A DNA stretch of 64,000 bases from Saprospiraceae bacterium (GCA_016714025.1 JADJOB010000001.1:405197-469196), one strand, 5' to 3'; shown: positions 1,804 to 54,215, counted from the first letter of the stretch. The notes: generated by a model from the letters alone, not told the origin. Program-made: numbers and translations.

Positions 1804-2090
1804 AACTCTATAAAATCATGTGTAACGTCTTTATCGATAGAATCAAACAGACAACTAAAACTAGCAAAAAATAAACCATTTTGAATGGTGATCACAGACA
1901 TACAAACAATATTAAAAACGGACAGCTACTAAACCAACACTCCTTGCCAACCCACCTGTACTTCTTATTTTCCTTCAAGTTTATCCCGCAAAAAGCTGGA
2001 CACATCGTTTTTAATTCTATATTAGCCAACTGGACAAATGGCAACGACAAGAATCTTAACTTTACAAATTGATAAAAACTAAGATAAATA

Positions 2091-3608
2091 ATGTTCGAGC
2101 AGACCTTTAAAAATATAGACGACATACTTCACAAAGATGCCGGTTGTGGCAGTGAATTGGATTATGTGGAGCAAACCAGTTGGATTTTGTTCCTCAAATA
2201 TTTGGACGACTTGGAGAAAGACCGAGCCACAGCTGCGGAACTCACAGGCAAGACTTACACGCCCATAATTGACAAAGATTACCAATGGACAGTTTGGGCA
2301 ATGCCCCTTCGACAGGCTCAGGGGCCGAATTCTAAGACGAGAATGAAGGATGGTGAGCTTGTCGAACCAGACCACCACAAGGCAATGACAGGTGACGACC
2401 TCACCGACTTTGTAAACAACAAACTCTTTCCTTACCTCAAAAAATTTAAACAGAGTGCCGAAAGTGCCGCCACCATTGAATACAAGATAGGCGAGATTTT
2501 CAGTGAACTGAAAAATCGTATACAAAGCGGCTACAATTTACGAGAAGTGATTAACCGCATTGACGAGTTGCGGTTCCGCACCCATGCAGAGAAGCACGAA
2601 ATGAGCCATCTGTATGAAGACAAAATTAAAAACATGGGCAACGCAGGCCGAAACGGTGGAGAATACTACACACCCCGACCGCTCATTACCACCATTGTAA
2701 AAGTAGTTGCCCCAGAAATTGGAGACAAAATTTATGATGGCGCTGTGGGCTCTGCGGGCTTCTTGTGTGAAGCGTTCGACTACCTGAAAAATCCTTCGGC
2801 AAGCTCAGGACAGGTTAAATCACTTTCTACAAAAGATTGGGAGATCCTGCAAAAACGCACTTTTTATGGCAAAGAGAAAAAATCATTGGCGTATATCATT
2901 GGCATTATGAATATGATTTTGCACGGAGTAGAAGCCCCCAACATCATACACACTAATACCCTTGCCGAAAACCTTGCCGACATACAAGAAAAAGACCGTT
3001 ATGATGTAGTGCTTGCCAATCCACCTTTTGGCGGAAAGGAACGTGCCGAAGTGCAACAAAATTTCCCCATTAAAACAGGCGAAACCGCTTCGCTTTTTTT
3101 ACAGCACTTTATTAAAATTCTGAAAGCAGGTGGCAAAGCAGGTGTGGTAATTAAAAACACGTTTTTGAGCAATACCGACAATGCCACGGTTGCTATACGA
3201 AAAACTTTGTTGGAAAACTGCAACCTGCATACCGTATTGGATTTACCGGGCGGAACTTTTACCGGTGCAGGGGTAAAAACCGTGGTGCTGTTTTTTGAAA
3301 AAGGCAAGCCCACACAAAAGGTTTGGTTTTACCAGTTGAACCTTGATCGTAATTTAGGCAAGACCAACCCACTCAACGAAAACGACTTGGCAGAATTTGT
3401 AGCACTACAAAAAAACTTTGCCGATAGCGAAAACTCCTGGACAGTAAACATTAAAAACATTGACCAAAGCACTTTTGATTTAAGTGTTAAAAACCCCAAC
3501 AAAAAAGAAGCGGCTCGACTCCGTTCACCAAACGAGATATTGGAAGAAATGAAAGCCTTGGATGAAGAAAGTGCGGAAATATTAAACTCAATTTTGGAAT
3601 TGATATGA
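2091..3608 (+). CDS. hsdM: type I restriction-modification system, DNA methyltransferase subunit M
   Basis: 505 aa. It has an HsdM N-terminal region, the AdoMet motif 'YDGAVGSAGFL' and the catalytic 'LANPPFGG' (NPPF, N6-adenine methyltransferase). Its stop overlaps the hsdS start (ATGA). Confidence 0.95.
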   Translation: MFEQTFKNIDDILHKDAGCGSELDYVEQTSWILFLKYLDDLEKDRATAAELTGKTYTPIIDKDYQWTVWAMPLRQAQGPNSKTRMKDGELVEPDHHKAMTGDDLTDFVNNKLFPYLKKFKQSAESAATIEYKIGEIFSELKNRIQSGYNLREVINRIDELRFRTHAEKHEMSHLYEDKIKNMGNAGRNGGEYYTPRPLITTIVKVVAPEIGDKIYDGAVGSAGFLCEAFDYLKNPSASSGQVKSLSTKDWEILQKRTFYGKEKKSLAYIIGIMNMILHGVEAPNIIHTNTLAENLADIQEKDRYDVVLANPPFGGKERAEVQQNFPIKTGETASLFLQHFIKILKAGGKAGVVIKNTFLSNTDNATVAIRKTLLENCNLHTVLDLPGGTFTGAGVKTVVLFFEKGKPTQKVWFYQLNLDRNLGKTNPLNENDLAEFVALQKNFADSENSWTVNIKNIDQSTFDLSVKNPNKKEAARLRSPNEILEEMKALDEESAEILNSILELI

Positions 3609-4834
3609 CTTGGAGAAAGAAAAAATTGGGGGATATTCTAACTATTGAGCGTGGTGGTTCTCCTCGACCTATAGATAAATATTTAACGAACTCTCCCGAT
3701 GGTATTAATTGGATAAAAATTTCTGATGCAACAGCGTCCACAAAATATATTTATGAAACCAAAGAAAAGATTACAAAGGACGGACTGCATAAAACAAGAT
3801 TAGTAAATGAAGGTGATTTCATTCTTTCAAACTCAATGAGCTTTGGAAGACCATACATAATGAAAACAACAGGTTGTATTCACGATGGTTGGTTAGTATT
3901 AAAGCAAAACGGAAGTAAAGTATTTGATACAGAGTTTTTATACTACTTACTTTCATCACCTTACGTTTTTAAACAATTTGATTATTTAGCTGCAGGTTCA
4001 ACTGTTAGAAATTTAAATATTGCTCTTGTTAGTTCTGTTGAAGTCCCCCTTCCACCCCTCCCCGAACAACAACGCATTGTTTCCATTTTAGACGAGTGCT
4101 TTGCCGCCATAGATAAGGTAAAAGCCAATGCCGAACATAACTTATTAAATGCAAATGAACTTTTTGAAAATGCTGCACAGGCAATATTCACTCAAAAGGG
4201 AACTGATTGGGAACAAAAACTTTTAGGAGAATTTGCAACATTTAGGAATGGAATAAACTATACAAAAGGAAGCAAGGGGGAGAAAATAAAAATAGTTGGG
4301 GTCAAAGATTTTCAAGATAGTTATTGGGTTCCAGACAATGATTTGGTTGAAGTTTCTCTTGATGGTAAGATAAACGAAACTGACTTGCTAAAAAAAGGGG
4401 ACATTTTGGCTGTCCGTTCTAATGGTAATCCTCAATTAATTGGTCGGACGTTATTAGCAGGTAAAATCAATGAAAAAGTTTCTCATTCGGGTTTCACTAT
4501 AAGGATTAGGTTAGATTCAAAAATAGTTAATCCGAACTATCTCTGTCATTTTTTGAAAATTCAACAGACAAGAAAAACACTTGTAGAAAGTGGGAATGGA
4601 GTTGGAATTAGGAGTTTAAATCAGGGTTCACTTTCCTCATTGAAAATTCCTTTTCCGAAATCATTAAAAGAGCAGGAAATGATAATTGACAAGGTAGATT
4701 CAATAGCAGAGCAAAGTCAAAAGCTAAAAGACATATACCAAAGAAAAATCAACGATTTGGAAGAACTGAAAAAATCTATCCTACAAAAAGCATTTGCAGG
4801 AGAATTGAAAACTGAAAAAGCGGTTGCAGTATGA
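3605..4834 (+). CDS. hsdS: type I restriction-modification system, specificity subunit S
   Basis: 409 aa with two target-recognition halves. Each half is followed by a conserved helical spacer ('LPPLPEQQRIVSILDE...' and 'FPKSLKEQEMIIDKVD...'), as is typical of HsdS. It has ATGA overlaps with both neighbouring genes. Confidence 0.9.
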   Translation: MTWRKKKLGDILTIERGGSPRPIDKYLTNSPDGINWIKISDATASTKYIYETKEKITKDGLHKTRLVNEGDFILSNSMSFGRPYIMKTTGCIHDGWLVLKQNGSKVFDTEFLYYLLSSPYVFKQFDYLAAGSTVRNLNIALVSSVEVPLPPLPEQQRIVSILDECFAAIDKVKANAEHNLLNANELFENAAQAIFTQKGTDWEQKLLGEFATFRNGINYTKGSKGEKIKIVGVKDFQDSYWVPDNDLVEVSLDGKINETDLLKKGDILAVRSNGNPQLIGRTLLAGKINEKVSHSGFTIRIRLDSKIVNPNYLCHFLKIQQTRKTLVESGNGVGIRSLNQGSLSSLKIPFPKSLKEQEMIIDKVDSIAEQSQKLKDIYQRKINDLEELKKSILQKAFAGELKTEKAVAV

Positions 4835-6861
4835 AAAAGATAGACCTACATCTACATACAAAGCCATCACAATACAGTGATTCAGCATTTATATTTAGCC
4901 TTCCAAAGCTAAAAGAGTATGTTGAAAAGTTAGCTATTGATTGCATCGCAGTTACCAATCACAACTTATTTGATTTACCTCAATTCAATCAGATTTCAGC
5001 ACAACTTGGAATAAAAGTTTTGCCAGGAATAGAAATAAATTTAGAGAAAGGACATCTGCTATTGGTCTCAGAAAATGCGGAACTTGATGACTTTGAAGCC
5101 AAGTGCAACCAAGTTGAAAGTTTAATCACAAGTGAATCTGAATTTATTACTGTTCAAAAGCTAAATGAAATATTCATTGACCTAAGTCGATACCTTTTAA
5201 TTCCGCACTATGATAAAACTCCAATTATTCGACCTGAAATAATTGAAAAATTAAAACCACATATTACATCGGGAGAAGTAACCAGTGCAAAGAAATTCAA
5301 ATATTGTTTGAAAGATGCAAACAGCTTAGTTCCTGTTTTATTTAGTGATTTGAGATTTACAGAGAATATGACTGCATTCTCACCACGCCAAACTTTTATT
5401 GATATTGATGATACTTCTTTAAGGGCAATTAAAACGTGCTTGATGGATAAGCACAAAGTTTTTCTTCATCATACAGAAGGACATCGGTTTTTTCAGATTT
5501 TTGAAAATGGTCAAAAACTTTCAACAGGTTTGAATGTAATTTTAGGTGAAAGGTCATCAGGTAAAACCTATACACTTAAAACAATTGCTGCTATGTATGA
5601 CAATGTCATACACATTAAGCAATTTGAGCTATTGGAAACGGATGAAGAAAGAGACAAAAAGAAATTTGATGAATTGCTTACTACTAAACAAAGCAGTATT
5701 TCAGAACAATTCTTAAAAGAATTCAAAGAAGTTGTAGAAGATGTTTCAAAAATTGACAGAAAAGAAAATGAAAAACGGATTGAAAGTTATTTAACCTCAT
5801 TGTTAAAAGTTGCAGCAGAAGAAGAGAAAAAAGATGTTTACTCAAAATGCACTCTGTTTAATGAAAGCAAGTTCATTGAAACAAGCAACGATACATTAAA
5901 GCAATTAGTAACTGCAACCGAATTACTTATTGAGAATACTCAATACAGAACTCTAATAGATAGCCACATTTCTAAAAAGGTGTTGCAAGAGTTAGTTGTT
6001 GATTTAATGAAGAAATATGAAGAAGTGCAAGAGAAAAACTTGAAAGCAAGGTGGATAAATTCTCTTGTTTTTAATATTCAAAAGGAGTTGCAATCATCAA
6101 CAGCATCAGAACACATTAAAGATGTTGACTTCTATACAATTCTTCTTGAAAAAGATAAGCTAAGGAAATTTGAAAATATTGCAACTCAAATCAAGAGAGA
6201 AAAAGTAATTGAACAAACAGATGTCCGTAGGTTTAAGATTGTGGCATCAACAAGAAGATTTAACGGAGCACAAGAGCTAAAAAACAAAAGCGGCATTCAA
6301 CAAACTGCTTTCAGTATTGCTTATCCACTATACGATTCTCCTATTCAATATTTGGATGAACTAAAGAAAATGGAGCGTATACCAGAAACTGAATTTTATA
6401 AATATTTTGTAGATGTCAGTTATCGGATATTGAATGAATTTGATGCCGAAATTTCAGGTGGAGAAAGGTCAGAATTTAATCTACTTGAAAAAATTCAAAA
6501 TGCTCATCATTTTGATTTGCTTTTAGTGGATGAACCCGAATCATCATTTGATAATTTGTTTTTAAAAAATGAAGTGAATGAGCAAATCAGGCAAATTTCA
6601 AAGACAGTTCCTGTAATTGTTGTTACCCACAACAACACAGTAGGAGCATCTATTAAGCCTGATTATATTCTCTACACAAAGAAGGAAATTGTTGGTGGCA
6701 AAGCAGTTTATGAAGTTTATTCGGGTAATCCTGCTGACCCAATACTAAAATCTATTGATGGCGAAGAAATTAATAATTATAATATAATGCTTAATTGCCT
6801 TGAAGCAGGTGATTCAGCATACATTGAAAGAAAACAGTCCTATGATATACTTAAAAATTGA
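4831..6861 (+). CDS. PHP-domain phosphoesterase fused to an ABC/SMC-like ATPase (candidate defence protein, Ppl-like architecture)
   Basis: 676 aa. The N-terminal PHP motifs are 'IDLHLHT', 'AVTNHN', 'GIEIN', 'GHLLL' and 'IPHYD'. Walker A is 'GERSSGKT' (aa 239-246). A K/E-rich helical insert of about 290 aa follows. The C-terminal part carries the ABC signature-like 'ISGGERS', Walker B 'LLLVDEPESSFD' and H-loop 'VVTHNN'. Confidence 0.8.
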   Translation: MKKIDLHLHTKPSQYSDSAFIFSLPKLKEYVEKLAIDCIAVTNHNLFDLPQFNQISAQLGIKVLPGIEINLEKGHLLLVSENAELDDFEAKCNQVESLITSESEFITVQKLNEIFIDLSRYLLIPHYDKTPIIRPEIIEKLKPHITSGEVTSAKKFKYCLKDANSLVPVLFSDLRFTENMTAFSPRQTFIDIDDTSLRAIKTCLMDKHKVFLHHTEGHRFFQIFENGQKLSTGLNVILGERSSGKTYTLKTIAAMYDNVIHIKQFELLETDEERDKKKFDELLTTKQSSISEQFLKEFKEVVEDVSKIDRKENEKRIESYLTSLLKVAAEEEKKDVYSKCTLFNESKFIETSNDTLKQLVTATELLIENTQYRTLIDSHISKKVLQELVVDLMKKYEEVQEKNLKARWINSLVFNIQKELQSSTASEHIKDVDFYTILLEKDKLRKFENIATQIKREKVIEQTDVRRFKIVASTRRFNGAQELKNKSGIQQTAFSIAYPLYDSPIQYLDELKKMERIPETEFYKYFVDVSYRILNEFDAEISGGERSEFNLLEKIQNAHHFDLLLVDEPESSFDNLFLKNEVNEQIRQISKTVPVIVVTHNNTVGASIKPDYILYTKKEIVGGKAVYEVYSGNPADPILKSIDGEEINNYNIMLNCLEAGDSAYIERKQSYDILKN

Positions 6862-7156
6862 AAACGGTAAAGGCTACTTCTTCAAAGAGCCTGACCAGTG
6901 GATTGAAATAGACCAAATTGGTAAAGAAGATTTATTGACTTTACTCGATAAAGCAATTGCTGATGATTTTGAAATGAATGATTATGATGCAGGCTTGTTA
7001 CAAAACACGGCACATCAAATAATCTACAAACACCTTTTTCAAAAGTTCAATGAGCTAGTTGAAAATAAAAGTCGCTTCAAAGATGAAAGCGAACAGCTTT
7101 ACAAAAGTGCAATAGAAAAATACACAGAAGCCATTCAAGCAAGTGGTGTTGTTTAA
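6842..7156 (+). CDS. small acidic hypothetical protein (105 aa)
   Basis: The tracked ORF runs 6800..7156. The start I prefer is the ATG at 6842 (MIYLKIENGKG...), which overlaps the end of the upstream gene by 20 nt. The ORF ends 11 nt before hsdR. It is D/E-rich, with no motif recognised. Confidence 0.55.
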   Translation: MIYLKIENGKGYFFKEPDQWIEIDQIGKEDLLTLLDKAIADDFEMNDYDAGLLQNTAHQIIYKHLFQKFNELVENKSRFKDESEQLYKSAIEKYTEAIQASGVV

Positions 7157-7167
7157 ATGAATATAAA

Positions 7168-9516
7168 ATGAACGAAGCAGAAACAAGAGCAGAACTCATA
7201 GACCCCAAGTTAAAGGCATGTGGATGGGGCGTTGTAGAAGGTTCTAAAGTCCTTCGTGAATACCATATTACACTAGGAAAAATTCAAACAGGCGGTGGGA
7301 ATGGCAAAAAAGAAATTGCCGATTACGTGTTGGTTTACAAAGGCATCAAGTTAGCAATTGTAGAAGCAAAAAGCGATGAACTAGAAGTTGGCGAAGGTGT
7401 CATGCAAGCCAAGAAATACGCTCAAAAATTGCAATTGGAAACTACTTATAGCACCAACGGAAAAAACATTTACCAAATCTGTATGAAATCAGGTGAAGAA
7501 GGTTTGGTGCCAGACTTTTTAAGTCCTGAACAACTTTGGAATAAAACCTTCCCTCCGTCAGACTCAGAGCTGAATGCTGAAGCGGATTGGCGAGAAAAAT
7601 TTGCCAATGTGCCGTTTGAAGATAAAAGCGGAAGTTGGCAGTTAAGATATTACCAGGAAATAGCCGTTCAGAGAGCCGTTGAAGCCATTGCTCAAAGCAA
7701 AAACAGAATTTTACTTACACTTGCAACAGGCACAGGAAAAACGGCCATTGCATTTCAAATTGCCTGGAAATTGTTTCAAACCCGTTGGAATTTAAAACGA
7801 GACGGTAGCCGCAGGTCGAGAATTTTATTTTTAGCAGACAGAAATATTTTGGCAGATCAAGCCTACAATTCATTTGCAGCATTTCCCGAAGATGCTTTGG
7901 TGCGAATTAAACCCACTGAAATTAAAAAAAGCGGAAAAGTACCAACCAATGGCAGCATTTTCTTTACCATATTTCAAACCTTTATGAGTGGTACGGATGC
8001 AGACGGAAAACCTCTGCCCTATTTTGGCGAATACCCAGCCGACTACTTTGATTTCATCATCATAGACGAGTGCCATCGTGGCGGAGCAAATGACGAGAGT
8101 AATTGGCGGGGCATATTAGAATATTTCAGTCCTGCGGTTCAATTAGGTTTAACAGCCACACCCAAGCGAAAAGACAATGTGGATACATACAAATACTTTG
8201 GCGAACCAGTTTTTATCTATTCGCTTAAAGAAGGAATTAATGATGGTTTCTTAACGCCCTTCAAAGTAAAACGCATTAAAACAACCTTAGATGATTATCG
8301 CTATACTTCGGACGATACCATTGTGGAAGGTGAAATTGAAGAAGGTAAACTCTATGAAGAAAAAGACTTTAATCGCACCATTGAAATTGTAGAACGTGAA
8401 GCCAAGCGTGTAAACATCTTTTTAGAAGAAGCAAATCAGAATGAAAAGGCAATAATTTTCTGTGCCAATCAAGCACACGCAGCATTGATAAGGGATTTGG
8501 TAAACCAAAATGCAAAAAGCAAAGACCCATTTTATTGTGTTCGTGTAACTGCCAATGATGGAGAAGAAGGTGAAAGATTGTTGCGTGAATTTCAAGACAA
8601 CGAAAAAACATTGCCAACCATTCTGACAACTTCGCAAAAACTTTCTACAGGTGTTGATGCAAGAAACATTCGGAATATTGTTTTGCTTCGTCCAGTCAAT
8701 TCAATGATTGAGTTTAAACAAATTGTTGGACGTGGCACCCGACTGTTTGACGGCAAAGAGTTTTTTACCATTTACGACTTTGTAGATGCTTATAAACATT
8801 TCAGCGATCCCGAATGGGACGGTGAACCTTTGGAAGAAGAACCAAAAGAATCTAAACTATATCCAACACCTAAACCAACCGTACCACAAATTTTTTTAGA
8901 TACAGGTGAGCTAACTCTGAAGAAGCCGAAAATAAAAATCAAACTACGCAATGGAAAAGAAAGAGAAATACAATCTATGATTTCAACTTCTTTTTGGAGT
9001 GCCGATGGTAAACCCATTTCATCCGAAGAATTTTTAAATAATCTGTTTGGAGAATTGCCCAAACTTTTCAGGGACGAAGAAGAATTGCGAAAACTTTGGA
9101 GCAACCCATTAACAAGAAAAACCTTGCTAGAGAATTTAGATGCAGCAGGTTTCCCAAAAGACGATTTATTGACTTTGCAAAAGTTAGTAGATATGGAAAA
9201 AAGCGACTTGTATGATGTACTGGAATACGTTTTCAATGGCGACTATATCGCAATGACAAGAGAAGCCAGAGCCAAAGCAGCCGAAGCGACCATCTTTGCT
9301 TTACTCAACGACAAACAAAAAGAGTTTATCACGTTCGTATTGAGTAAATATATTGAAACAGGCGTTGACGAACTCGACCAAGAAAAACTTCCAATCTTAT
9401 TGACAAACAAGTATCAATCATTGGAAGACGCCAAAGAAATTTTAGGAGACGTAGCAAACATTAGTAGACTGTTCATAGAATTTCAAGAACATCTTTACAA
9501 ACAGAAAGCAGCGTAA
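7168..9516 (+). CDS. hsdR: type I restriction enzyme, endonuclease/helicase subunit R
   Basis: 782 aa. The N-terminal PD-(D/E)xK region includes 'ADYVL...AIVEAK'. Helicase motifs are I 'LATGTGKT', II 'IIIDECHR' and III 'GLTATP'. The C-terminal tail looks EcoEI-R-like. Confidence 0.95.
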   Translation: MNEAETRAELIDPKLKACGWGVVEGSKVLREYHITLGKIQTGGGNGKKEIADYVLVYKGIKLAIVEAKSDELEVGEGVMQAKKYAQKLQLETTYSTNGKNIYQICMKSGEEGLVPDFLSPEQLWNKTFPPSDSELNAEADWREKFANVPFEDKSGSWQLRYYQEIAVQRAVEAIAQSKNRILLTLATGTGKTAIAFQIAWKLFQTRWNLKRDGSRRSRILFLADRNILADQAYNSFAAFPEDALVRIKPTEIKKSGKVPTNGSIFFTIFQTFMSGTDADGKPLPYFGEYPADYFDFIIIDECHRGGANDESNWRGILEYFSPAVQLGLTATPKRKDNVDTYKYFGEPVFIYSLKEGINDGFLTPFKVKRIKTTLDDYRYTSDDTIVEGEIEEGKLYEEKDFNRTIEIVEREAKRVNIFLEEANQNEKAIIFCANQAHAALIRDLVNQNAKSKDPFYCVRVTANDGEEGERLLREFQDNEKTLPTILTTSQKLSTGVDARNIRNIVLLRPVNSMIEFKQIVGRGTRLFDGKEFFTIYDFVDAYKHFSDPEWDGEPLEEEPKESKLYPTPKPTVPQIFLDTGELTLKKPKIKIKLRNGKEREIQSMISTSFWSADGKPISSEEFLNNLFGELPKLFRDEEELRKLWSNPLTRKTLLENLDAAGFPKDDLLTLQKLVDMEKSDLYDVLEYVFNGDYIAMTREARAKAAEATIFALLNDKQKEFITFVLSKYIETGVDELDQEKLPILLTNKYQSLEDAKEILGDVANISRLFIEFQEHLYKQKAA

Positions 9517-9770
9517 TGAAAGGAATCCAAGTATATACAGGCAACGAACAAAAGTGATACACATAGCTAAGCTGCAAAAGCCCAAACACGGATCAATGCT
9601 TTGTCAAAGAGTTTGGAAAGCCAACGCAAGACAAAATTGCTTTAAAATATTTATCGACTCTTCAAAAAAATAGAAAAAGCAAAGCCGAAAATCCTTAGTA
9701 TTCATAAAACAACAACAGCGAAAGTGTTTTCATATATACATGAAAGACTAAATAATATAAACATGATAGA

Positions 9771-10325
9771 ATGAGAAAAGTAATTGCAGCAATCAATATG
9801 ACACTGGACGGATATTGCGACCACACAGCGATTAGTCCGGACGAAGAAATACATGATCATTATTCCGATTTGCTAAATGAATCGGGCGAAATCCTCTATG
9901 GTCGAATTACCTTTCAACTCATGCAATTTTGGCAAACGCTACTCATAAATCCTTCTGGAGACAAATCGATGGACGACTTTGCAATTGCAATAGACAAAGT
10001 TCCAAAACTTGTGTTTTCTAATACACTGAAAAGCACAGGATGGGAAAGTGCAAAGCTGGCGAATAAAACACTTGAGGAAGCGCTTTTAGAACTCAAAAAA
10101 CAAACAGGCAAAGCCATTTTTATTGGCAGCCGGAGCTTAATTATTCAACTAATGGAACTCAATTTGATTGACGAATATCAACTCATGGTTCACCCAGTGG
10201 TGGCCGGAAGCGGCTTGCCCTTGTTTGAAAATATGCAGGACAGAAAGATGCTTAATCTCTTAAAGACAAAAAACTTTAACAGCGGCCCGGTTATACTTTA
10301 TTACCAGCCTATAAAAAACGACTGA
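9771..10325 (+). CDS. dihydrofolate reductase-like (RibD C-terminal domain) family protein
   Basis: 184 aa. The N-terminus 'MRKVIAAINMTLDGY' and the overall pattern are typical of the RibD_C/YwjB family. Confidence 0.7.
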   Translation: MRKVIAAINMTLDGYCDHTAISPDEEIHDHYSDLLNESGEILYGRITFQLMQFWQTLLINPSGDKSMDDFAIAIDKVPKLVFSNTLKSTGWESAKLANKTLEEALLELKKQTGKAIFIGSRSLIIQLMELNLIDEYQLMVHPVVAGSGLPLFENMQDRKMLNLLKTKNFNSGPVILYYQPIKND

Positions 10326-10666: not shown

Positions 10667-11854
10667 ATGAATGGAATAATCACACTTGTATTTTTGACTT
10701 CGTTCACCTTAAGCATTGGACAATCACAGTTTATCACTAAGCTTGATGGGAGCAAAGTTTCGATTAACGAAATTGATAAATCCATCACACGATTAATGAA
10801 CGAAGCAAATATTGACGGCTTAAGCCTGTCCGTACTAAACAATAATAAAACTGTTTTTATAAAATCCTATGGCTATAGAAATAAACCTAAAAATGAATTG
10901 CTTGACCCTGGTACGATTATGTATGGAGCTTCTTTTAGTAAAGCTGTATTTGGTTTTCTTATAATGAAATTAGTTCAACAAAATAAATTGGATCTTGACA
11001 AACCGCTTTACCTGTATTTAAACAAACCAATCCCTGAATACGACTATTTTTCCGATTTAACGAATGATGATAATTGGAAATTAATAACCGCAAGAATGTG
11101 TTTAAGCCATACTACTGGACTGCCTAATGTAAGATGGTTTAATCCAATCACCTCAGAACAAGATACCTTGGGTATTATGAAAATCTACTTTAGCCCCGGA
11201 ACAAAATACGCCTATTCCGGTGAAGGTTTTAAACTCTTGCAATTGGTTGTAGAAGAAATTACAAATAAAAAAATTGATGAATTAGCTATTGAAAATGTTT
11301 TTAAGCCTATTGGAATGTCCCGAACAGGGTATGTTTGGCACAATTCATTTGGTGATGACAATGTAGCTGTAGGCCATATGAGCAATGGCGACATTGATAA
11401 AAAACGTAAACGCACAGAAGCAGTTGCAGGAGGCTCTTTGGTAACAACTTTAGCAGATTATTCTAAGTTTATAGAATATATCATGCAAAAAAAAGGATTA
11501 AAAAAGAAATGGTTTAATGAAATGATTACACCCCAAATTGAAATCCATTCAGTTACCCAATTTCCACCGATAACATTTGAAAAATCATCAGAATATAAAG
11601 AAATTAAATTGTCTTATGGTTTGGGATGGGGAATTTTACATTGTCCAAACGGTAAAGCCATCTTCAAAGAAGGCAATGGAGGGGCCTGGAGAAATTACAA
11701 TATAAATTTTATTGACAAAGGCATTTCTATTGTCATTTTAATCAATAGTGAAAATGGTGAATCCATATATCAAGAACTTATAGAAACTTTAGTTGGCCCT
11801 ACGTGCATTCCCTGGAAATGGCATGGCTATATTCCATACAATAATAAAAAATAA
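10667..11854 (+). CDS. serine hydrolase, beta-lactamase/transpeptidase-like family
   Basis: 395 aa with a signal peptide, the SxxK motif 'ASFSKAV' and a downstream 'YSGEG' (YxN-like) motif. Confidence 0.8.
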   Translation: MNGIITLVFLTSFTLSIGQSQFITKLDGSKVSINEIDKSITRLMNEANIDGLSLSVLNNNKTVFIKSYGYRNKPKNELLDPGTIMYGASFSKAVFGFLIMKLVQQNKLDLDKPLYLYLNKPIPEYDYFSDLTNDDNWKLITARMCLSHTTGLPNVRWFNPITSEQDTLGIMKIYFSPGTKYAYSGEGFKLLQLVVEEITNKKIDELAIENVFKPIGMSRTGYVWHNSFGDDNVAVGHMSNGDIDKKRKRTEAVAGGSLVTTLADYSKFIEYIMQKKGLKKKWFNEMITPQIEIHSVTQFPPITFEKSSEYKEIKLSYGLGWGILHCPNGKAIFKEGNGGAWRNYNINFIDKGISIVILINSENGESIYQELIETLVGPTCIPWKWHGYIPYNNKK

Positions 11855-20024: not shown

Positions 20025-22616
20025 TTAATTGGAATTTATCTTGATAAGTTTAACTGTTTTAATTTTATCATTTGAAATCCAATGCAAAGAATAAATTCCA
20101 TTGCTTAAACCATTTAATTGAACAATGGCTGTATTGCTTCCAGAAACATAAGCATGCTGAAATTCTTGTAATAATGTCCCCTTAAAATCTGTTATCTGAA
20201 TGAGCCCTGTCCCAAATTTTGTCTCATTAAAACTTAGGTGAACCGATTCATTGCATGGATTGGGATAAACAGATAAGCTCAAGCCCATATCATCCGGCTG
20301 TTTAATACTTTGACATGGAACCGTTATTGTAAGTTTTTTAATTGGACCATTACCACATGCATTTTTTGCAATTACTGAAACATCACCTCCATTTGCACCA
20401 ATTAATACTTTGATGTTATTGGTATTGCTTCCTGAAATTATTACAGATCCGGTAGGAACCGTCCATTGGTATGATGTTGCACCGGTAACTGCCGCAATGT
20501 AATAGTTCTGTGTTGTACCTGCGCATGGCGAGGTATTTCCATAAATTGTTCCTGCAACTGAAGGAACGCCATATACAAGCAATTTTCTGGGGGCACTGGA
20601 ACCACAATTATTATTCGCGGAGACTTGTATGTACCCACTATAAAATTGTTGAAACTTTATACTCACAGCGGTATCTCCCGGACTTTGAAATGTGGTAATT
20701 TCTGCACCTGGAATGTCCGTAGTCCAGGTATAATTTAAAGCCGATTCAACAGTTCGTATTGAATAACTGGAAGTCGCATTGCAATTTGCATACACTTTTC
20801 CAACGATTGAACCAGGCACGGCTGGAACAGAGCTTATCGTTATTTTTCTTTTTGGACCTAAACCACAGGCATTATACATTAACACACTTAAACTTCCACC
20901 TATAAAATTGCCGTTGAAGTTTATACTAATTGAATTCGTTCCCTGTCCTTGGGTAATAGTTGATCCAGGTGGAGGAGTCCAATAATATTGCACATCATTT
21001 ACTTGGGTCACGGAATACGTTCCACTTGAATTTGCGCACACGGCAAATGTTTGTCCAACAATTGGATCCGGCATTCCAGGAATTGTTATAACTTTTACGG
21101 TAGTTGGATTGGATACAGCCTTACATCCATAAGAATTAGTTACCGTTACAATATAATTTCCAGCAGTTGCCACTTCAATGCTTTGTGTTTTGGCAGCTGT
21201 ATTCCAAAGATATGAACTGGCTTGATTTGCAGTTAACACCACTTTGCTTCCTTGACAAATTGTTGTTGGGCCATTTGCGGTAATAATGGCATTGGGCATT
21301 GGATTTACAGTGATTGCTAATTTTGCGATAGCTCCTTCTCCATAATCATTTACACCCCGTACGCTTATCATTCCGGAAACTGCATTTGATCCAAAATGAA
21401 CATTGATACTGTTCGTTGTACTAAAGCCTTGTGCTCCATCAGGCAAGGTCCATAGATAACTCGTTGCATTTTTAATAGCCGGTACGGTATAGACTACATT
21501 CGATTGTCCCTGGCAAACTGTAGTCAATCCAGAGATTAAACCTGGACAAGCTGGTAAATAATCTACCAATACCTGATACAATGATGCCGTGATTCCATCA
21601 GATGCCGAAGGAAAAGAGTTTGAAAGTCCACAAACTACCGCTTTCATGCAAGGATCATAAATCATACGTGTTTTATAACCCAGTGTTTGCCCTCCGTGTC
21701 CCCAACAGAGATTTCCAAAGAAAGTATATTTTGCAAAACCCAATCCGTAATTTCCAGGAGTGAGAAAATTAGTCAGCTCAGCTAAAGAACTTGGTGATAA
21801 GATATTTCCATCCAACAATGCATGATACCATTGTGCCATTTCATTTACAGTTGAAAATATAGCACCTGCAGGCCCGCCAGCGCTATTTAAAGACAATCTG
21901 GACGTATCGTGAAAATCAATTTCATTATACCATCGATGCGAAATCGTTCCAACCGGTGCTTCTTCAACATCAAAGAATGTGCTGTCTAATTGCAGTGGAG
22001 TCAATAAGCTATCTCTGATGAGCTTTGCGATTGATTGTCCGGTGGCACTTTTGACAATTAAACCTGCCAGGATGTAATTTGTATTTGAATAATAAAAATT
22101 CGTACCAGGAGTAAATCGCATGGGGCCTATCCATTTTAAAACTTCCTCTGGTTTCCAAATCCGGTCATGCTTTTTTAATATAGAATCCAAATGCGCCTGT
22201 GTAGAAAACATATCATCGATGCCACTTCGATGATTCAATAGTTGACGAATTGTGACATTTGGATTGATGTTATTATAATTTGGCAACCATTCATGGAGTG
22301 AATCCTCCAATGATAACACGTGTTGCTCCGCAAGCTTTAACAACATTACCGAAGTAAATAATTTAGAATTACTGGCCAGTCCAAACTCCATGTCCGCCGT
22401 AATTGGATGTCCACTGTACGACAGGCCGCTTGCTCCCGTCCATATCCCTTGACCAGGATAATAGACACTTGCAGCCATCCCTTTCGTGTTGGGATTTGAC
22501 GACACCAATGCATCCAATTTCTGTTGCAACTTAGAAGCCAAATTAGGATTAAAAGACTGCCCAATTGCATTTGCAAATGTGAAAAACACAATAACCAATT
22601 GAATTAATTTTTTCAT
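20025..22616 (-). CDS. secreted beta-lactamase-fold serine hydrolase with about five PKD-like/Ig-like repeats and T9SS C-terminal domain
   Basis: It has a signal peptide and the SxxK motif 'ASNSKLF'. The central part repeats a 'C.G....Y.V......Y.WT.P.G...' module. The C-terminal tail is 'LSVYPNPCNE...IYSLHWIS...VKLIKI'. The preferred start is MKKLIQ (22616); the tracked ORF starts at 22625. Confidence 0.75.
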   Translation of the reverse strand: MKKLIQLVIVFFTFANAIGQSFNPNLASKLQQKLDALVSSNPNTKGMAASVYYPGQGIWTGASGLSYSGHPITADMEFGLASNSKLFTSVMLLKLAEQHVLSLEDSLHEWLPNYNNINPNVTIRQLLNHRSGIDDMFSTQAHLDSILKKHDRIWKPEEVLKWIGPMRFTPGTNFYYSNTNYILAGLIVKSATGQSIAKLIRDSLLTPLQLDSTFFDVEEAPVGTISHRWYNEIDFHDTSRLSLNSAGGPAGAIFSTVNEMAQWYHALLDGNILSPSSLAELTNFLTPGNYGLGFAKYTFFGNLCWGHGGQTLGYKTRMIYDPCMKAVVCGLSNSFPSASDGITASLYQVLVDYLPACPGLISGLTTVCQGQSNVVYTVPAIKNATSYLWTLPDGAQGFSTTNSINVHFGSNAVSGMISVRGVNDYGEGAIAKLAITVNPMPNAIITANGPTTICQGSKVVLTANQASSYLWNTAAKTQSIEVATAGNYIVTVTNSYGCKAVSNPTTVKVITIPGMPDPIVGQTFAVCANSSGTYSVTQVNDVQYYWTPPPGSTITQGQGTNSISINFNGNFIGGSLSVLMYNACGLGPKRKITISSVPAVPGSIVGKVYANCNATSSYSIRTVESALNYTWTTDIPGAEITTFQSPGDTAVSIKFQQFYSGYIQVSANNNCGSSAPRKLLVYGVPSVAGTIYGNTSPCAGTTQNYYIAAVTGATSYQWTVPTGSVIISGSNTNNIKVLIGANGGDVSVIAKNACGNGPIKKLTITVPCQSIKQPDDMGLSLSVYPNPCNESVHLSFNETKFGTGLIQITDFKGTLLQEFQHAYVSGSNTAIVQLNGLSNGIYSLHWISNDKIKTVKLIKINSN

Positions 22617-22950
22617 AGTTAGCATTATAAGTAAATAATAATTTAATTTATTCTAATAAAACCTAGCAGTCATTGAAGTACCGTCAAAAGACCCTTTAAT
22701 GACTTTACAAACCAATTGCCCGGCACACAGGTCCTATGACAATCATTAAAATAAAATAACCCACTGAACTAAAAAGTCAGAAGTAAAAAGTATTGAATAA
22801 ATAAATAGGTAAGGTTAAAGCTTGATTGTAGATTAAATAAAAATCAACTTATTTAATCCTTCACAAATATGTATCAATTAGAAAACCTGTAAAGCGAGAA
22901 TTGACTTGTGGCAGAAACTAATATACAACTGGCATCCGGAAAAACACAAA

Positions 22951-42214: not shown

Positions 42215-42450
42215 ATCTCCTCTTCCTCTGTGTTCCTCACTCTGTGATCTTAGTGTGCAATAAATTAGTTGATAGGTGATAGGTGATAGGTGATAGTTGA
42301 TAGTAAGAACATACATTTTTCTTGCGTCTCTGCGTCTCTGCGTCTCTGCGTGAAAATTCTTTAAACCAAAGACCACGAAGAAAATACACACGAAGAAATA
42401 CAAAGTTAATCTCCTCCTCTTCCGTTTTCCTCCCTCTGTGATTTTCGCGT
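42215..42450. repeat. composite short-tandem-repeat region
   Basis: Direct repeats of about 43 bp lie at 42215-42257 and 42408-42450. They flank (GGTGATA/GTTGATA)x5 at about 42268-42304, (TGCGTCTC)x3.5 at about 42323-42352, and cacgaagaaa(a)taca x2 at about 42374-42403. Confidence 0.85.
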
Positions 42451-43161: not shown

Positions 43162-45795
43162 ATGGAATTAGAAACCCGATTTAAACCGGGGAGCATTGAA
43201 TCAAAATGGTATGATTGGTGGCTTCAACGGAATTATTTTTCATCCAAACCAGATGAACGGGTCCCGTTTTCAATAGTGATCCCACCTCCCAATGTGACGG
43301 GAGTGCTCCACATGGGTCACATGCTCAACAATACAATTCAAGATGTCTTGATACGGCGAGCCCGTCAAAATGGAATGAATGCCTGTTGGGTACCCGGAAC
43401 CGACCATGCTTCCATTGCAACCGAAGCGAAAGTAGTCCAAATGCTTCGTGAAAAAGGAATCAAAAAATCTGACATTACCAGAGATGAGTTCATGAAATAT
43501 GCCTGGGAATGGAAAGAAAAATACGGGGGCATCATACTCGAGCAATTAAAAAAACTTGGTGCATCCTGCGACTGGGATCGGACTTCATTTACCATGGATC
43601 CGGTGCGCTCAGAAGCTGTAATCAGTGCTTTTGTCGATTTATATAACAAAGGAAAACTATACCGCGGCAAACGCATGGTTCACTGGGATCCGGAAGCAAA
43701 AACCGTTTTGTCCAGCGAAGAAGTCTTGCATCATGACGAACAAGCGAGTTTGTTTCACATCCTGTATAAACTGGAAGGTTCGGATACAGAAGGAATTGTA
43801 ATCGCAACACAACGTCCGGAAACCATCATGGCAGATACTGCTGTGTGTGTGCATCCGGATGATCCACGATACACTGCCTTTCATGGCAAAAAAGTGATTT
43901 TACCTTTATTAAACAAAGCCATTCCGGTAATAACAGATACGTACATTGATCGTGAATTTGGAACCGGCGCATTAAAAGTGACTCCTGCTCATGATCCCAA
44001 CGATTATGAAATTGGATTGCGTCATGGATTGGAAGTCATTGATTGTTTGAATGAAGATGGAACACTAAGCAAAGAAGCCATCATCCTGGTCGGTGAAGAC
44101 CGCTTTGTTGCACGTAAAAAAATAAAACCGCTGCTTGAAGAAGCCGGTGTCTTAATTAAAATTGAAAACTACACCACCAGCATTGGTCGAAGTGAACGCA
44201 CGAATGCAGTGGTCGAACCACGATTGAGTTTGCAGTGGTATGTTAAAATGGGCGAATTGGCCAAACCTGCATTGGAAGCAGTTATGGACGATTCCATCCA
44301 GTTTACTCCAGAACATTTTAAAAATACTTATAGACATTGGATGGATACCATCCGCGATTGGTGCATTTCACGTCAATTGTGGTGGGGCCATCGGATTCCA
44401 GCCTGGTATTATGGGGAAGAAGTCTTCGTTGCAAAAACAGCAGAAGAAGCATTGGCCCAGGCTCAGCAAAAGACTGGCAATTTATCACTTCAACTTTCCG
44501 ATTTACAGCAAGATGAGGATGTGTTGGATACCTGGTTTTCATCCTGGCTTTGGCCTATTTCTGTATTTGATGGAAATAATAATTCAGAGGATTTTAAATA
44601 CTATTATCCTACTTCGGTGTTAGTGACCGGATGGGATATTATTTTTCTGTGGGTTGCACGGATGGTTATGGCCGGTTATGAATGGAAAGGACAATTGCCT
44701 TTTCACAAAGTTTATTTTACCGGGATGGTACGCGATAAACTGCGCAGAAAGATGAGTAAGTCATTGGGAAATTCACCCGATGCACTGCAACTGATTGAAG
44801 ATTTTGGTGCCGATGGCGTGCGATTTGGAATGTTGGCTTGTTCGCCGGCAGGTGGGGATTTATTGTTTGATGAAAAACTGTGCGAACAAGGACGCAATTT
44901 TTCCAATAAGATGTGGAATGCACTTCGACTGATAAAAGGTTGGACTCCTGATAATTCAAAACAAGCAAATGATGGAGATCAACTGCTGATGGAATGGATG
45001 GAGAGCAAATTGAATGCTGTATTGCTAGAGCAAAAGCAGTATTTCGAACAACTTAAATTATCAGAAGCAATTAAAACCCTTTACAATTTCATCTGGGAAG
45101 ATTTTTGTGGATTTTTATTAGAGGCTGCAAAGCCTGCCAGTCAAGAAAACATTTCCGGGGAATTGTACACTAAAATCATTGAAGTGTATGAAAAAATCTG
45201 CATCGTCCTACATCCGTTTATGCCATTCATCACCGAAGAAATCTGGCACGGATTAAAAACCAGAAACGAAGGCGAAGATTGCATTGTAGCATCGATGCCA
45301 AGCCAGGGAGCAGTCAACGCAGAACTACTTGCAAACATGACCGAATTGCGAACTGTCCTCAGTCAAATTCGCGAATTGCGAAATAAATACGGTGTGAAAA
45401 TGAATATCTCCGTTCCCTTGCACATCATGAAAAACGACCAAACCAATTTATTAGCAATCTCCGGAGCCTCCAGTTTATTGAAAAAGATGGCAGTATTAAC
45501 GGAGATCCTGCAAACCGATCAGGAAATAGAAGCAGCCCAATCCTTTATGGGAATGCGCCAAAAGTATTTTGTACAACTCCCCGTTGAATTAGACATAGAA
45601 GCTGAAAAAACTGAATTGCTAAAAGAGATCAGCTATCAGGAAGGATTTATAAACAGCGTCCTCAAAAAATTAGAAAATGAACGCTTCGTTGCCTCTGCAC
45701 CAAAAGACCTGGTAGCTAAAGAACGCAAAAAACTGGAAGACGGACAAAGCCGATTGATTGCGTTGAAAGAAAGACTGGAGTCAATTACGAATTAA
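43162..45795 (+). CDS. valS: valine--tRNA ligase
   Basis: 877 aa with the HIGH region 'PPPNVTGVLHMGH', the motif 'KMSKSLGN' and a C-terminal coiled coil. Confidence 0.97.
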   Translation: MELETRFKPGSIESKWYDWWLQRNYFSSKPDERVPFSIVIPPPNVTGVLHMGHMLNNTIQDVLIRRARQNGMNACWVPGTDHASIATEAKVVQMLREKGIKKSDITRDEFMKYAWEWKEKYGGIILEQLKKLGASCDWDRTSFTMDPVRSEAVISAFVDLYNKGKLYRGKRMVHWDPEAKTVLSSEEVLHHDEQASLFHILYKLEGSDTEGIVIATQRPETIMADTAVCVHPDDPRYTAFHGKKVILPLLNKAIPVITDTYIDREFGTGALKVTPAHDPNDYEIGLRHGLEVIDCLNEDGTLSKEAIILVGEDRFVARKKIKPLLEEAGVLIKIENYTTSIGRSERTNAVVEPRLSLQWYVKMGELAKPALEAVMDDSIQFTPEHFKNTYRHWMDTIRDWCISRQLWWGHRIPAWYYGEEVFVAKTAEEALAQAQQKTGNLSLQLSDLQQDEDVLDTWFSSWLWPISVFDGNNNSEDFKYYYPTSVLVTGWDIIFLWVARMVMAGYEWKGQLPFHKVYFTGMVRDKLRRKMSKSLGNSPDALQLIEDFGADGVRFGMLACSPAGGDLLFDEKLCEQGRNFSNKMWNALRLIKGWTPDNSKQANDGDQLLMEWMESKLNAVLLEQKQYFEQLKLSEAIKTLYNFIWEDFCGFLLEAAKPASQENISGELYTKIIEVYEKICIVLHPFMPFITEEIWHGLKTRNEGEDCIVASMPSQGAVNAELLANMTELRTVLSQIRELRNKYGVKMNISVPLHIMKNDQTNLLAISGASSLLKKMAVLTEILQTDQEIEAAQSFMGMRQKYFVQLPVELDIEAEKTELLKEISYQEGFINSVLKKLENERFVASAPKDLVAKERKKLEDGQSRLIALKERLESITN

Positions 45796-46061
45796 GAATT
45801 AAGAATTATGAATGAAGAATTATGGGAGCGTAGCATACATCCCGTGTACCCGTTAGGATAATTAAGAATTAATAATTATGGGAACTTAGCGTATATCTAG
45901 TGAGCTGTCGGGAAGAATACGATGAACAGATTGGACCTTAACCATAATTTGCAAAAGTAATATAGGCCACCAAGTGGAAATTTGGTAAACATAAAAAACA
46001 GGATTAAGGATAATACACTAAGGAAAAATAATTCTTAATTTTTAATTCTTAATTCTTAATT
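45789..46061. repeat. MITE-like composite repeat bounded by 18-bp perfect inverted heptad arrays
   Basis: The sequence aattaagaattaagaatt at 45790-45807 overlaps the valS stop. Its exact reverse complement lies at 46044-46061. Inside are the core 'gggagcgtagcatacatcccgtgtac' (about 45824-45849) and a degenerate second copy (about 45879-45905). Confidence 0.8.
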
Positions 46062-49477: not shown

Positions 49478-49549
49478 GGGCTGTTGGACTGTTGGGCTGT
49501 TAGACTGTTAGACTGTTAGACTGTTGGGCTGTTGGGCTGTTGGGCTGTT
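49478..49549. repeat. octamer tandem array (GGGCTGTT/AGACTGTT) x9
   Basis: Direct reading gives GGGCTGTT GGACTGTT GGGCTGTT AGACTGTT x3 GGGCTGTT x3. The array starts about 18 nt after the regulator stop. Confidence 0.9.
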
Positions 49550-49800
49550 GGGGAGGAGGGCTATTTGAATGTTGAGCATTTTTGAATTTTTAATTACTGA
49601 CTCCTTTCTGCTGACCACTGATTCCCTTGCTGGGCGTAGGCTTGGCCTACGTCAAATTTCAATCGAAGCATAATTAAGGAAATTTTCTATAAGAAGTGAG
49701 ACATGCATAGCTTTTAGCTATAGAGAAAATTTCTTGCTATGAATCATGTTTTAATGATCAAAATATAATTGGAATGCTGGGCATTTTTGAATTTGTACCA

Positions 49801-54120: not shown

Positions 54121-54215
54121 AATTAAGAAATAAGAATTAAAAATTACGGATTACGAATTACGGATTACGAATTTAGGATTAAGGATTATGGGAGCGTAAC
54201 GTACATCCCGCGTAC
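54121..54215. repeat. heptamer array x10 followed by a second copy of the conserved core
   Basis: The array reads AATTAAG AAATAAG AATTAAA AATTACG GATTACG AATTACG GATTACG AATTTAG GATTAAG GATTATG. It is followed by 'ggagcgtaacgtacatcccgcgtac', which is near-identical to the core at 45824-45849. Confidence 0.85.

Follow-up and report, generated by a model that had tools for sequence, protein, structure and literature searches.

In SbcCD/Mre11-Rad50, and in OLD, Gabija (GajA), PARIS (AriAB), Septu and retron PtuAB, and Wadjet (JetCD), a split ABC-type ATPase head bearing a helical insert is coupled to a metal-dependent nuclease or phosphoesterase. PrrC of the EcoprrI locus (and RloC) joins an ABC-type NTPase to a nuclease-type effector, the prrC gene lying between hsdS and hsdR of a restriction-modification (R-M) operon. 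Ppl, reportedly described by Gao and colleagues in 2020, is a single-gene defence system that unites a PHP domain with an ATPase. Here we analyse a locus comparable to all of these in a 64,000-nucleotide stretch of DNA from a Saprospiraceae bacterium (GCA_016714025.1 JADJOB010000001.1:405197-469196), referred to throughout as the window. Listing and translation of the open reading frames (ORFs) of this 64-kb window placed two overlapping genes inside a type I R-M operon: ORF 4831-6861 ("A", from ATG 4831 to a stop at 6861 on the + strand, 676 amino acids (aa)) and ORF 6842-7156 ("B", with its stop at 7156). By its sequence the A-B pair is one copy of the two-gene PDC-M49 cassette, a predicted anti-phage system, and on balance we consider it likely that the pair is an autonomous ATPase and nuclease defence module, which entered a type IB R-M operon by insertion and is now carried along by that operon.

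The letters PDC abbreviate "phage defence candidate". Payne, Hughes, Fineran & Jackson (bioRxiv 10.1101/2024.01.29.577857; Payne et al. 2024) used "guilt-by-embedding", collecting genes located inside BREX, DISARM and type I R-M loci and filtering out known defence, mobility and housekeeping families, to arrive at 145 single- and multi-gene predicted candidates. Their Table S8 gives PDC-M49 as FAM_00021>>FAM_01695 and FAM_00021>>FAM_02682, two cassettes in which the large protein precedes a small one, drawn from a different family in each. The same authors class the Ppl ATPase as an ABC ATPase, and find PrrC embedded almost exclusively in type I R-M. Ppl is experimentally protective, for example against T7 (Ppl counter-defence note). 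In the literature searched, neither PDC-M49 by name nor any test of it was found, and the only reports bearing on a PHP-ATPase defence mechanism were the note on counter-defence against Ppl and work on Ophion, a PHP protein that is not related.

The features of the cassette in the window are as follows:

4831..6861, + strand: PDC-M49A, 676 aa, in which a PHP phosphoesterase is fused to an SMC/Rad50-like ABC ATPase (PADLOC PDLC04680; AlphaFold2; Foldseek)
4831..5460, + strand: PHP metal-dependent phosphoesterase domain, aa 1-210, the putative effector (Pfam PHP at aa 5-84; Foldseek match to 2anu; conservation)
5515..5616, + strand: N-terminal lobe of the ABC head, with Walker A G239-x4-GK245-T and Q-loop Q264 (motif positions; conservation)
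5644..6195, + strand: helical, coiled-coil-like insert, aa 272-455, without a CxxC zinc hook (AlphaFold2 secondary structure)
6196..6648, + strand: C-terminal lobe of the ABC head, with signature S542GGER, Walker B D567-E568, D-loop and H-loop H600 (conservation; PDB sequence matches; Foldseek)
6649..6858, + strand: conserved C-terminal beta-and-helix module, aa 607-676 (AlphaFold2; conservation)
6842..7156, + strand: PDC-M49B, a 104-aa acidic partner of isoelectric point (pI) 4.65 (PADLOC PDLC04682; AlphaFold2; pairing with A)

Searched against PADLOC-DB v2 (v2.0.0), A matched the PDC-M49A hidden Markov model (HMM) PDLC04680 with an E-value of 5.7e-286, aa 1-676 aligning to positions 1-674 of 674, and matched a second model, PDLC04678, with an E-value of 3.1e-98. 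B, adjacent and on the same strand, matched the PDC-M49B model PDLC04682 (E 7.5e-38; aa 1-95 to positions 1-95 of 97), so that both of the HMM features that define PDC-M49 are present. The window copy shares with the catalogued system the end-to-end matches to both HMMs, the order of large then small gene and the embedding in type I R-M, and it differs in nothing structural; it is a further member, from a Bacteroidota metagenome-assembled genome. This search had been proposed in a preliminary description of the DNA, which had presented the R-M embedding and the small partner as new; the large protein, the small partner and the embedding are all already catalogued (PADLOC-DB v2; Payne et al. 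2024).

A is a single polypeptide that joins a PHP metal-dependent phosphoesterase to a split SMC/Rad50-type ABC ATPase. Translation reproduced the ORF, its length and all nine motifs of the preliminary description at their residues: DLHLHT (aa 5), TNHN (42), GIEI (66), GHLLL (74) and IPHYD (124) in the PHP part, and GERSSGKT (239), SGGERS (542), LLLVDEPE (563) and VTHN (598) in the ATPase. Pfam PHP (PF02811) matched aa 5-84 with 33.0 bits (gathering cut-off 26.4); SMC_N and ABC_tran matched only weakly, because the ATPase head is split. The proposed structure prediction, carried out with AlphaFold2, gave a model with a mean pLDDT (predicted local distance difference test) score of 77.9 and of about 90 (~85-95) over aa 1-210. 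It consists of a PHP barrel (aa 1 to ~210), a low-confidence linker, a Walker A lobe (~229-262), the insert (272-455), a lobe with the signature, Walker B and H-loop (~456-606) and a C-terminal module (607-676) of strands (612-641) and helices (649-675).

The insert is modelled as helices at aa 272-305, 310-331, 354-368, 382-423 and 434-455, with an apex (aa 334-340) of low confidence, and it contains 34 K+R and 39 D+E in 193 aa. The helical insertion that splits the head measures ~190-295 aa, the upper figure being the distance between the Walker A and signature motifs. No CxxC zinc hook is present in the translation, in which C340 is the sole cysteine of aa 266-455. Foldseek searches of the PDB matched the N-terminus of A to 2anu, the PHP phosphoesterase TM0559 (probability 1.00, target TM-score 0.54), and the rest of A to the heads of MukB, JetC, RecN, SMC, cohesin and Rad50 and to a retron-IA SMC-family ATPase; in a viral library the matches were PHP domains of Pol III and subunits of Rad50-like recombination endonucleases. 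By sequence, aa 500-640 also matched ABC nucleotide-binding domains of PDB entries. No solved structure of a relative of A emerged from a phmmer/profile search of the PDB, whose matches were confined to ABC nucleotide-binding domains of a generic kind and a single PHP protein (E ~0.1). Pfam, AlphaFold2 and Foldseek thus agree with the earlier description, in which a PHP phosphoesterase is joined to an ATPase of split ABC/SMC type.

Conservation was scored in an alignment of 81 homologues of A extending down to ~45% identity. Residues conserved in at least 97% of the sequences include D5, H7, H9, D17, H44, E68, H126, D173 and R175 of the PHP domain (H75 reaches at least 90%), G239, G244, K245, Q264, S542-G-G-E-R, D567, E568 and H600 of the ATPase, and G632, P634, L657, E658, A659, G660, Y664, R667 and Y671 of the C-terminal module. 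Both catalytic centres are under strong purifying selection. One of the three PDC-M49A HMMs, PDLC04679, has 541 positions and aligns to aa 147-674 of A, and this start at residue 147 means that a subfamily without the PHP catalytic core may exist; library representatives of ~530-560 aa that begin near aa 140-150 (P0242, P0265) could be fragments.

Membership of A in Ppl was rejected, since no PADLOC Ppl HMM matched the whole protein at E <= 0.01 or its halves at E <= 10; homology to the Ppl candidates mentioned in the preliminary description was thus not detected. Both proteins carry PHP and ATPase domains in one polypeptide, but Ppl is a single gene whereas PDC-M49 has partner B in 79 of 79 testable loci; the relationship is at most distant or convergent. 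Homology to PrrC or RloC was rejected as well, A matching no PADLOC HMM for either. PrrC has a C-terminal anticodon-nuclease domain, whereas A has an N-terminal PHP domain, a coiled-coil insert and an obligate partner, and most of the PDC-M49 family is not linked to R-M. EcoprrI is a type IC system, whereas the window operon is type IB. Compared with SbcCD and the ABC-ATPase plus nuclease defences, A differs in having a nuclease of PHP type rather than calcineurin-like, TOPRIM or HNH type, in carrying it in cis at the N-terminus, in its short insert without a zinc hook, and in lacking sequence-level membership in those families.

A third candidate, the TrlF family (NCBIfam NF045780), was also rejected: A scores 69.4 bits against a cut-off of 350. 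The alignment (E 2.8e-19) spans aa 3-477 of A, that is the PHP domain, the Walker A lobe and part of the insert, and positions 7-548 of 944 in the model, and by this sequence similarity TrlF is a distant homologue of A rather than the same family. A family model for the Spaf_1101 'AAA-like ATPase' aligns to the C-terminal 110 aa of A. TrlF, from the Photorhabdus temperature-restriction locus, carries the annotation histidinol phosphatase, and the small operon to which it belongs is conditionally toxic; its partners are TrlG (Schlafen AlbA_2 plus HATPase_c_4) and TrlR, not a B-like protein. At two loci a protein with SLFN_AlbA_2 and HATPase_c_4 domains, the architecture of Photorhabdus TrlG, is encoded just downstream of A-B, which echoes the TrlF-TrlG pairing of that distantly related PHP-ATPase.

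The spread of the family argues against a chance fusion. More than 2,000 proteins in a 90%-clustered database match A, and a 50%-clustered library holds 655, 409 and 223 clusters at E <= 1e-3, 1e-10 and 1e-30, respectively; recurrence of the architecture in at least 223 clusters at 50% identity (E <= 1e-30) indicates that it is not accidental. Even at 28% identity, family members still measure ~665-700 aa. When each GTDB species was represented by one genome, a pattern scan detected 328 loci in 185,579 species; the 80 loci most similar to the query were kept for the survey of genomic context below. These 80 include members of the Bacteroidota, Bacillota, Pseudomonadota, Spirochaetota, Omnitrophota, Elusimicrobiota, Planctomycetota, Chloroflexota, Fibrobacterota and Nitrospirota. 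No homologue of A was found in phage genomes.

The small, acidic B is an obligate partner of A, and the two genes overlap translationally. It adjoins A, with overlapping reading frames, in all 79 loci where this could be tested, the remaining one (L027) being a sequence that ends 100 nt past A. In the window the overlap is 20 nt, the ATG of B at 6842 sitting inside the 3' end of A. The acidic character noted for B in the preliminary description is upheld, at a length of 104 rather than 105 aa, and its homologues are acidic too (median pI 4.9). In the AlphaFold2 model of B (pLDDT 86.7), three short strands and a helix are followed by a C-terminal helix of 46 residues. Foldseek, sequence and profile searches of the PDB gave no match to this fold, and Pfam and NCBIfam gave nothing significant (DUF5363 at E 0.006, under its cut-off).

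The host operon is a complete type I R-M system of the EcoAI (IB) family, in which the three subunits were assigned as follows:

2091..3608, + strand: hsdM, methyltransferase subunit, 505 aa (Pfam N6_Mtase, 3.7e-62, and HsdM_N; PADLOC MTase_I, 4.3e-162)
3605..4834, + strand: hsdS, specificity subunit with two target-recognition domains, 409 aa (Pfam Methylase_S over two stretches, 5.2e-29; PADLOC Specificity_I, 3.7e-100)
7168..9516, + strand: hsdR, restriction subunit, 782 aa, a member of the type IB (EcoAI/FtnUII) family (NCBIfam NF046051; Pfam HSDR_N, ResIII, Helicase_C and EcoEI_R_C)

HsdR scores 785 bits against the NF046051 equivalog, whose cut-off is 550. In the order hsdM (2091-3608), hsdS (3605-4834), A (4831-6861), B (6842-7156) and hsdR (7168-9516), the five co-oriented genes overlap or nearly abut: the stop of hsdS and the start of A share the sequence ATGA, and 11 nt separate B from hsdR. 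Public gene calls for assembly GCA_016705665.1 give the same five genes. The preliminary description was thus accurate on the ATGA coupling and on the place of A between hsdS and hsdR, the position of prrC in EcoprrI. A scan for promoters and terminators in the operon returned 24 promoter-like sites against 24.9 expected in shuffled sequence, the sigma-70 consensus used being unsuited to Bacteroidota.

This position suggests one explanation, advanced in the preliminary description, in which A (with or without B) would be a latent effector like PrrC: HsdMSR would hold it inactive, and an anti-restriction protein of the Ocr, ArdA or Stp-like kind, by disabling restriction, would release it. The shared place between hsdS and hsdR favours it, as do the ATGA coupling to hsdS and the gap of 2-12 nt before hsdR, both of which are kept in the four closest relatives (L001-L004), the recurrence of type I R-M association in several clades, and the fact that other ABC-ATPase defences are triggered by anti-restriction proteins, as reviewed in the literature. 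We surveyed the wider family, as the earlier description had proposed, using iterated HMMs for HsdM, HsdS and HsdR, because detection from single seeds could miss divergent families, and cross-checking the outcome against counts of Pfam and PADLOC matches among 273 neighbour proteins and against individual neighbours. Iteration and cross-checking added L049 and revealed that the 1097-aa neighbour in L053 is an HsdR. Type I R-M genes lie nearby in 9 of the 80 loci, and in 6 of the 54 that are well-flanked (at least 5 kb on both sides of A-B). Type I R-M is thus absent from the surrounding 10 kb in ~89% of the well-flanked homologues, and the rate of association counted here probably overestimates that of the whole family, given that the 80 loci are the ones most similar to the query.

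The associated loci are L001-L004, L047, L049, L053 and L068, together with L031, where the genes are on the opposite strand. Their arrangements differ: hsdM-hsdS-A-B-hsdR in the window and L001-L004, hsdR-hsdM-hsdS-A-B in L047, hsdR, a YgjP-like peptidase gene and A-B in L053 and probably L049, and hsdM-hsdS-x-A-B-x-AAA_15/21 ATPase in L068. The HsdR family varies as well, being of EcoAI type in L001-L004 and L047 and of HSDR_N/T1R_D3 type in L053 and L049. R-M-associated copies fall into at least four A clades and four operon positions, and the members of those clades nearest to them lack an R-M association. L031, for example, shares 89% identity with L036, and L005-L008, without R-M genes close by, belong to the same 55%-identity cluster as the window copy. 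The closest relatives of associated copies are stand-alone cassettes, among them 56 on plasmids. In L053 the YgjP-like (SprT/WLM-type) metallopeptidase gene (9243-10001) lies between hsdR and A and overlaps A by 4 nt; L049 has a gene of similar size in that position (2669-3358), and YgjP-like genes account for 3 of 136 upstream neighbours.

PrrC-like release is made improbable by these results: most homologues lie away from type I R-M, plasmid copies stand alone, associated copies occupy differing operon positions beside differing HsdR families, their nearest relatives are not R-M-linked, and A matches no PrrC HMM, while PrrC itself is almost exclusively embedded (Payne et al. 2024). R-M coupling as a property of the PDC-M49 family, together with the PrrC-like gating that had been proposed for it, is not supported.

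The composition of the window operon points to insertion. The A-B pair has a guanine-plus-cytosine (GC) content of ~31%, against ~43% for hsdM and ~39% for hsdR. Compared with the closest genome locus, L001, identity reaches 93% across A-B together with the 5' portion of hsdR, but stands at 74% for hsdM and at 73% for the 3' portion of hsdR. The GC contrast and this mosaic identity point to a foreign cassette that was inserted into R-M operons and later exchanged between them, and the sequence comparison suggests that the exchange of A-B was recombinational. At the DNA level the window resembles L001-L004 only within the operon (window 2086-9517); the similarity ends at the operon borders, so the five-gene unit lies in different genomic backgrounds. 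In stand-alone relatives A is usually preceded by 100-500 bp, room for a promoter of their own, whereas in the window clade the gap is -3; with no intergenic space, A-B is probably transcribed from the promoter of the R-M operon.

Outside R-M operons the A-B pair is self-contained and mobile, occurring alone on plasmids and in variable chromosomal islands. We found 56 plasmids with a stand-alone A-B pair and no R-M, at 41-43% identity (45 from Enterococcus, 9 from Staphylococcus, 1 from Rhizobium and 1 from Phaeobacter), flanked by recombinases, transposases, Abi and toxin-antitoxin genes. Examples are L083, on the E. faecalis plasmid NZ_CP124933.1 (rep9a; 7001-9326), and L084, on a Rhizobium plasmid (7001-9311). 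On the plasmids the pair is annotated as 'histidinol-phosphatase' plus a hypothetical protein, and the flanks include serine recombinases, a Mu-type transposase and Abi and RelE/ParE genes. Three loci from different genera, L023, L024 and L025 (Formosa, an uncultured Flavobacteriaceae and Altibacter), share a common block, in which ORFs of 855, 678 and ~526 aa lie upstream of A-B and one of 456 aa follows 3 nt past B; this suggests a larger conserved mobile island or a multi-gene system that contains PDC-M49.

Such settings would also suit an addiction module, in which A would be a toxic nuclease and B its labile acidic antidote, stabilising a mobile element or R-M island, with phage defence secondary. 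The strict pairing and overlap of the genes, the small size and acidity of B, the frequency of the pair on mobilizable or conjugative plasmids beside toxin-antitoxin and recombinase genes, and its sporadic distribution (the 328 pattern-positive loci among 185,579 species genomes) are in keeping with this. We nevertheless regard it as very improbable: the large-then-small gene order is atypical of classical type II toxin-antitoxin pairs, B lacks the DNA-binding fold usual in antitoxins, conservation of the full ATPase machinery suggests regulated sensing rather than simple toxicity, and the neighbours are mainly defence genes.

Those neighbours include Shedu SduA, GmrSD, HNH, PtuA, AriA, AAA_15/21 and Fic proteins, type IIG enzymes, TrlG-like Schlafen proteins, other PDC candidates, relaxases and DUF932. 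Counting the two genes closest to A-B on each side, Methylase_S occurs 6 times in 136 upstream and HSDR_N 5 times in 137 downstream. Since the commonest neighbour family reaches no more than ~6 of 136, synteny is not conserved. That a protein resembling the RecN, Rad50 and SMC heads is a housekeeping DNA-repair machine, an SbcCD or RecN analogue caught by chance inside an R-M operon, is scarcely credible against this lack of synteny (the top upstream family being the 6 of 136 just given), the patchy occurrence over at least 10 phyla with 90-98% identity between different Bacteroidota families, the plasmid copies and transposase flanks, and the cataloguing of the family as a defence candidate. 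Some neighbours are plain housekeeping genes. The earlier proposal of a defence function remains credible in view of the PDC-M49A/B matches, the variation of context from locus to locus and the frequent defence and mobile-element neighbours.

For the autonomous defence module that we favour, analogy with SbcCD/Mre11-Rad50, OLD/Gabija, PARIS, Septu/retron PtuAB and Wadjet suggests how it might work. A would dimerise through ATP-sandwiched heads, and the coiled-coil insert, B or both would detect a sign of infection, which could be foreign DNA ends, replication intermediates or a phage protein, for instance. Binding or hydrolysis of ATP would then license the PHP domain to hydrolyse phosphodiester bonds in nucleic acid, with the outcome that phage nucleic acid is destroyed or the infection aborted. 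B would most likely keep A inactive or bridge the A dimer. The R-M operon would serve as a landing site and as a vehicle that provides a second layer of defence, not as a required regulator of A; the pair would have been inserted at a permissive defence locus and then co-transferred and co-expressed, options that Payne et al. 2024 also discuss for embedded genes.

By analogy with its structural neighbours, which are DNA-handling proteins, DNA is somewhat more likely to be the substrate of the PHP domain than RNA or nucleotides. The same A-B module might instead act on RNA (tRNA or rRNA, or 5' ends, which the PHP enzyme RNase AM processes) or on the nucleotide pool, leading to translation shutdown or metabolite depletion. 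The PHP superfamily includes both phosphatases and exoribonucleases, which counts in favour of this possibility. Among the ABC/SMC-ATPase defences, PrrC, PARIS and retron-Eco7 PtuAB look like DNA machines yet cut tRNA, and a phage Ro60-like protein counters Ppl, another PHP-ATPase system. Set against the resemblance of the A head to the DNA-clamping SMC, MukB, JetC, RecN and Rad50, and against viral matches to Rad50-like recombination nucleases and Pol III proofreading PHP domains, action on RNA or nucleotides seems to us unlikely, though by no means far-fetched.

Several points weigh against an autonomous nuclease module. With a predicted template modelling (pTM) score of 0.40, the relative placement of the domains of A, and hence its inter-domain geometry, is uncertain. 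The usual terminal PHP ligand motif, D-x-H, reads D173-x-R175 in A, and R175 is conserved; of the ligand set that had been called complete, H7, H9, H44, E68, H75, H126 and D173 are conserved, and only this last motif departs from the pattern. PHP enzymes also include phosphatases and RNases, and TM0559, its closest solved fold, has no assigned function. Any role for B is pure inference, since B matches no known fold or family. Some neighbours of the homologues are housekeeping genes (beta-galactosidase, S9 peptidase), and the tight hsdS-A overlap in all four clade relatives may still reflect a lineage-specific functional link to R-M. Finally, PDC-M49 is so far a bioinformatic candidate only.

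The remainder of the 64-kb window is ordinary Bacteroidota chromosome. Near the R-M island are two ORFs with a serine beta-lactamase fold, at 10667-11854 and 20025-22625, the latter fused to PKD-like repeats and a C-terminal sorting domain of the type IX secretion system (T9SS). Short tandem arrays of 7-8-nt units occur at 42266-42402, 45783-45822, 46029-46061, 49478-49552 and 54122-54188, mostly between long ORFs; the units in the window are TAGGTGA x5.4, TGCGTCTC x3.6, AATTAAG x5.7, TAATTCT x4.7, GGGCTGTT x9.4 and ATTAAGG/ATTACGG-like x6.6, and these arrays could be regulatory or phase-variable repeats.

PDC-M49 fits the well-known theme of an ABC ATPase combined with a nuclease and embedded in R-M. 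It is moderately widespread, with at least 223 clusters at 50% identity, many phyla and plasmids of Enterococcus and Staphylococcus, and no PHP-plus-ABC-ATPase defence, Ppl included, has a solved mechanism. The locus adds nothing beyond the catalogue, and its remaining value is as an experimental handle: the operon is a compact natural construct for asking whether embedding brings functional coupling or only co-transfer. It is a long shot that in the window clade (A at least 76% identical, the order hsdM-hsdS-A-B-hsdR, conserved overlaps) PDC-M49 has become wired to type IB R-M, as a PHP-nuclease counterpart of PrrC that would fire when restriction is neutralised. If true, such wiring would mean that an R-M-guarded effector had evolved independently a second time, and would illustrate an autonomous ABC-ATPase defence turning into the guard of another system.

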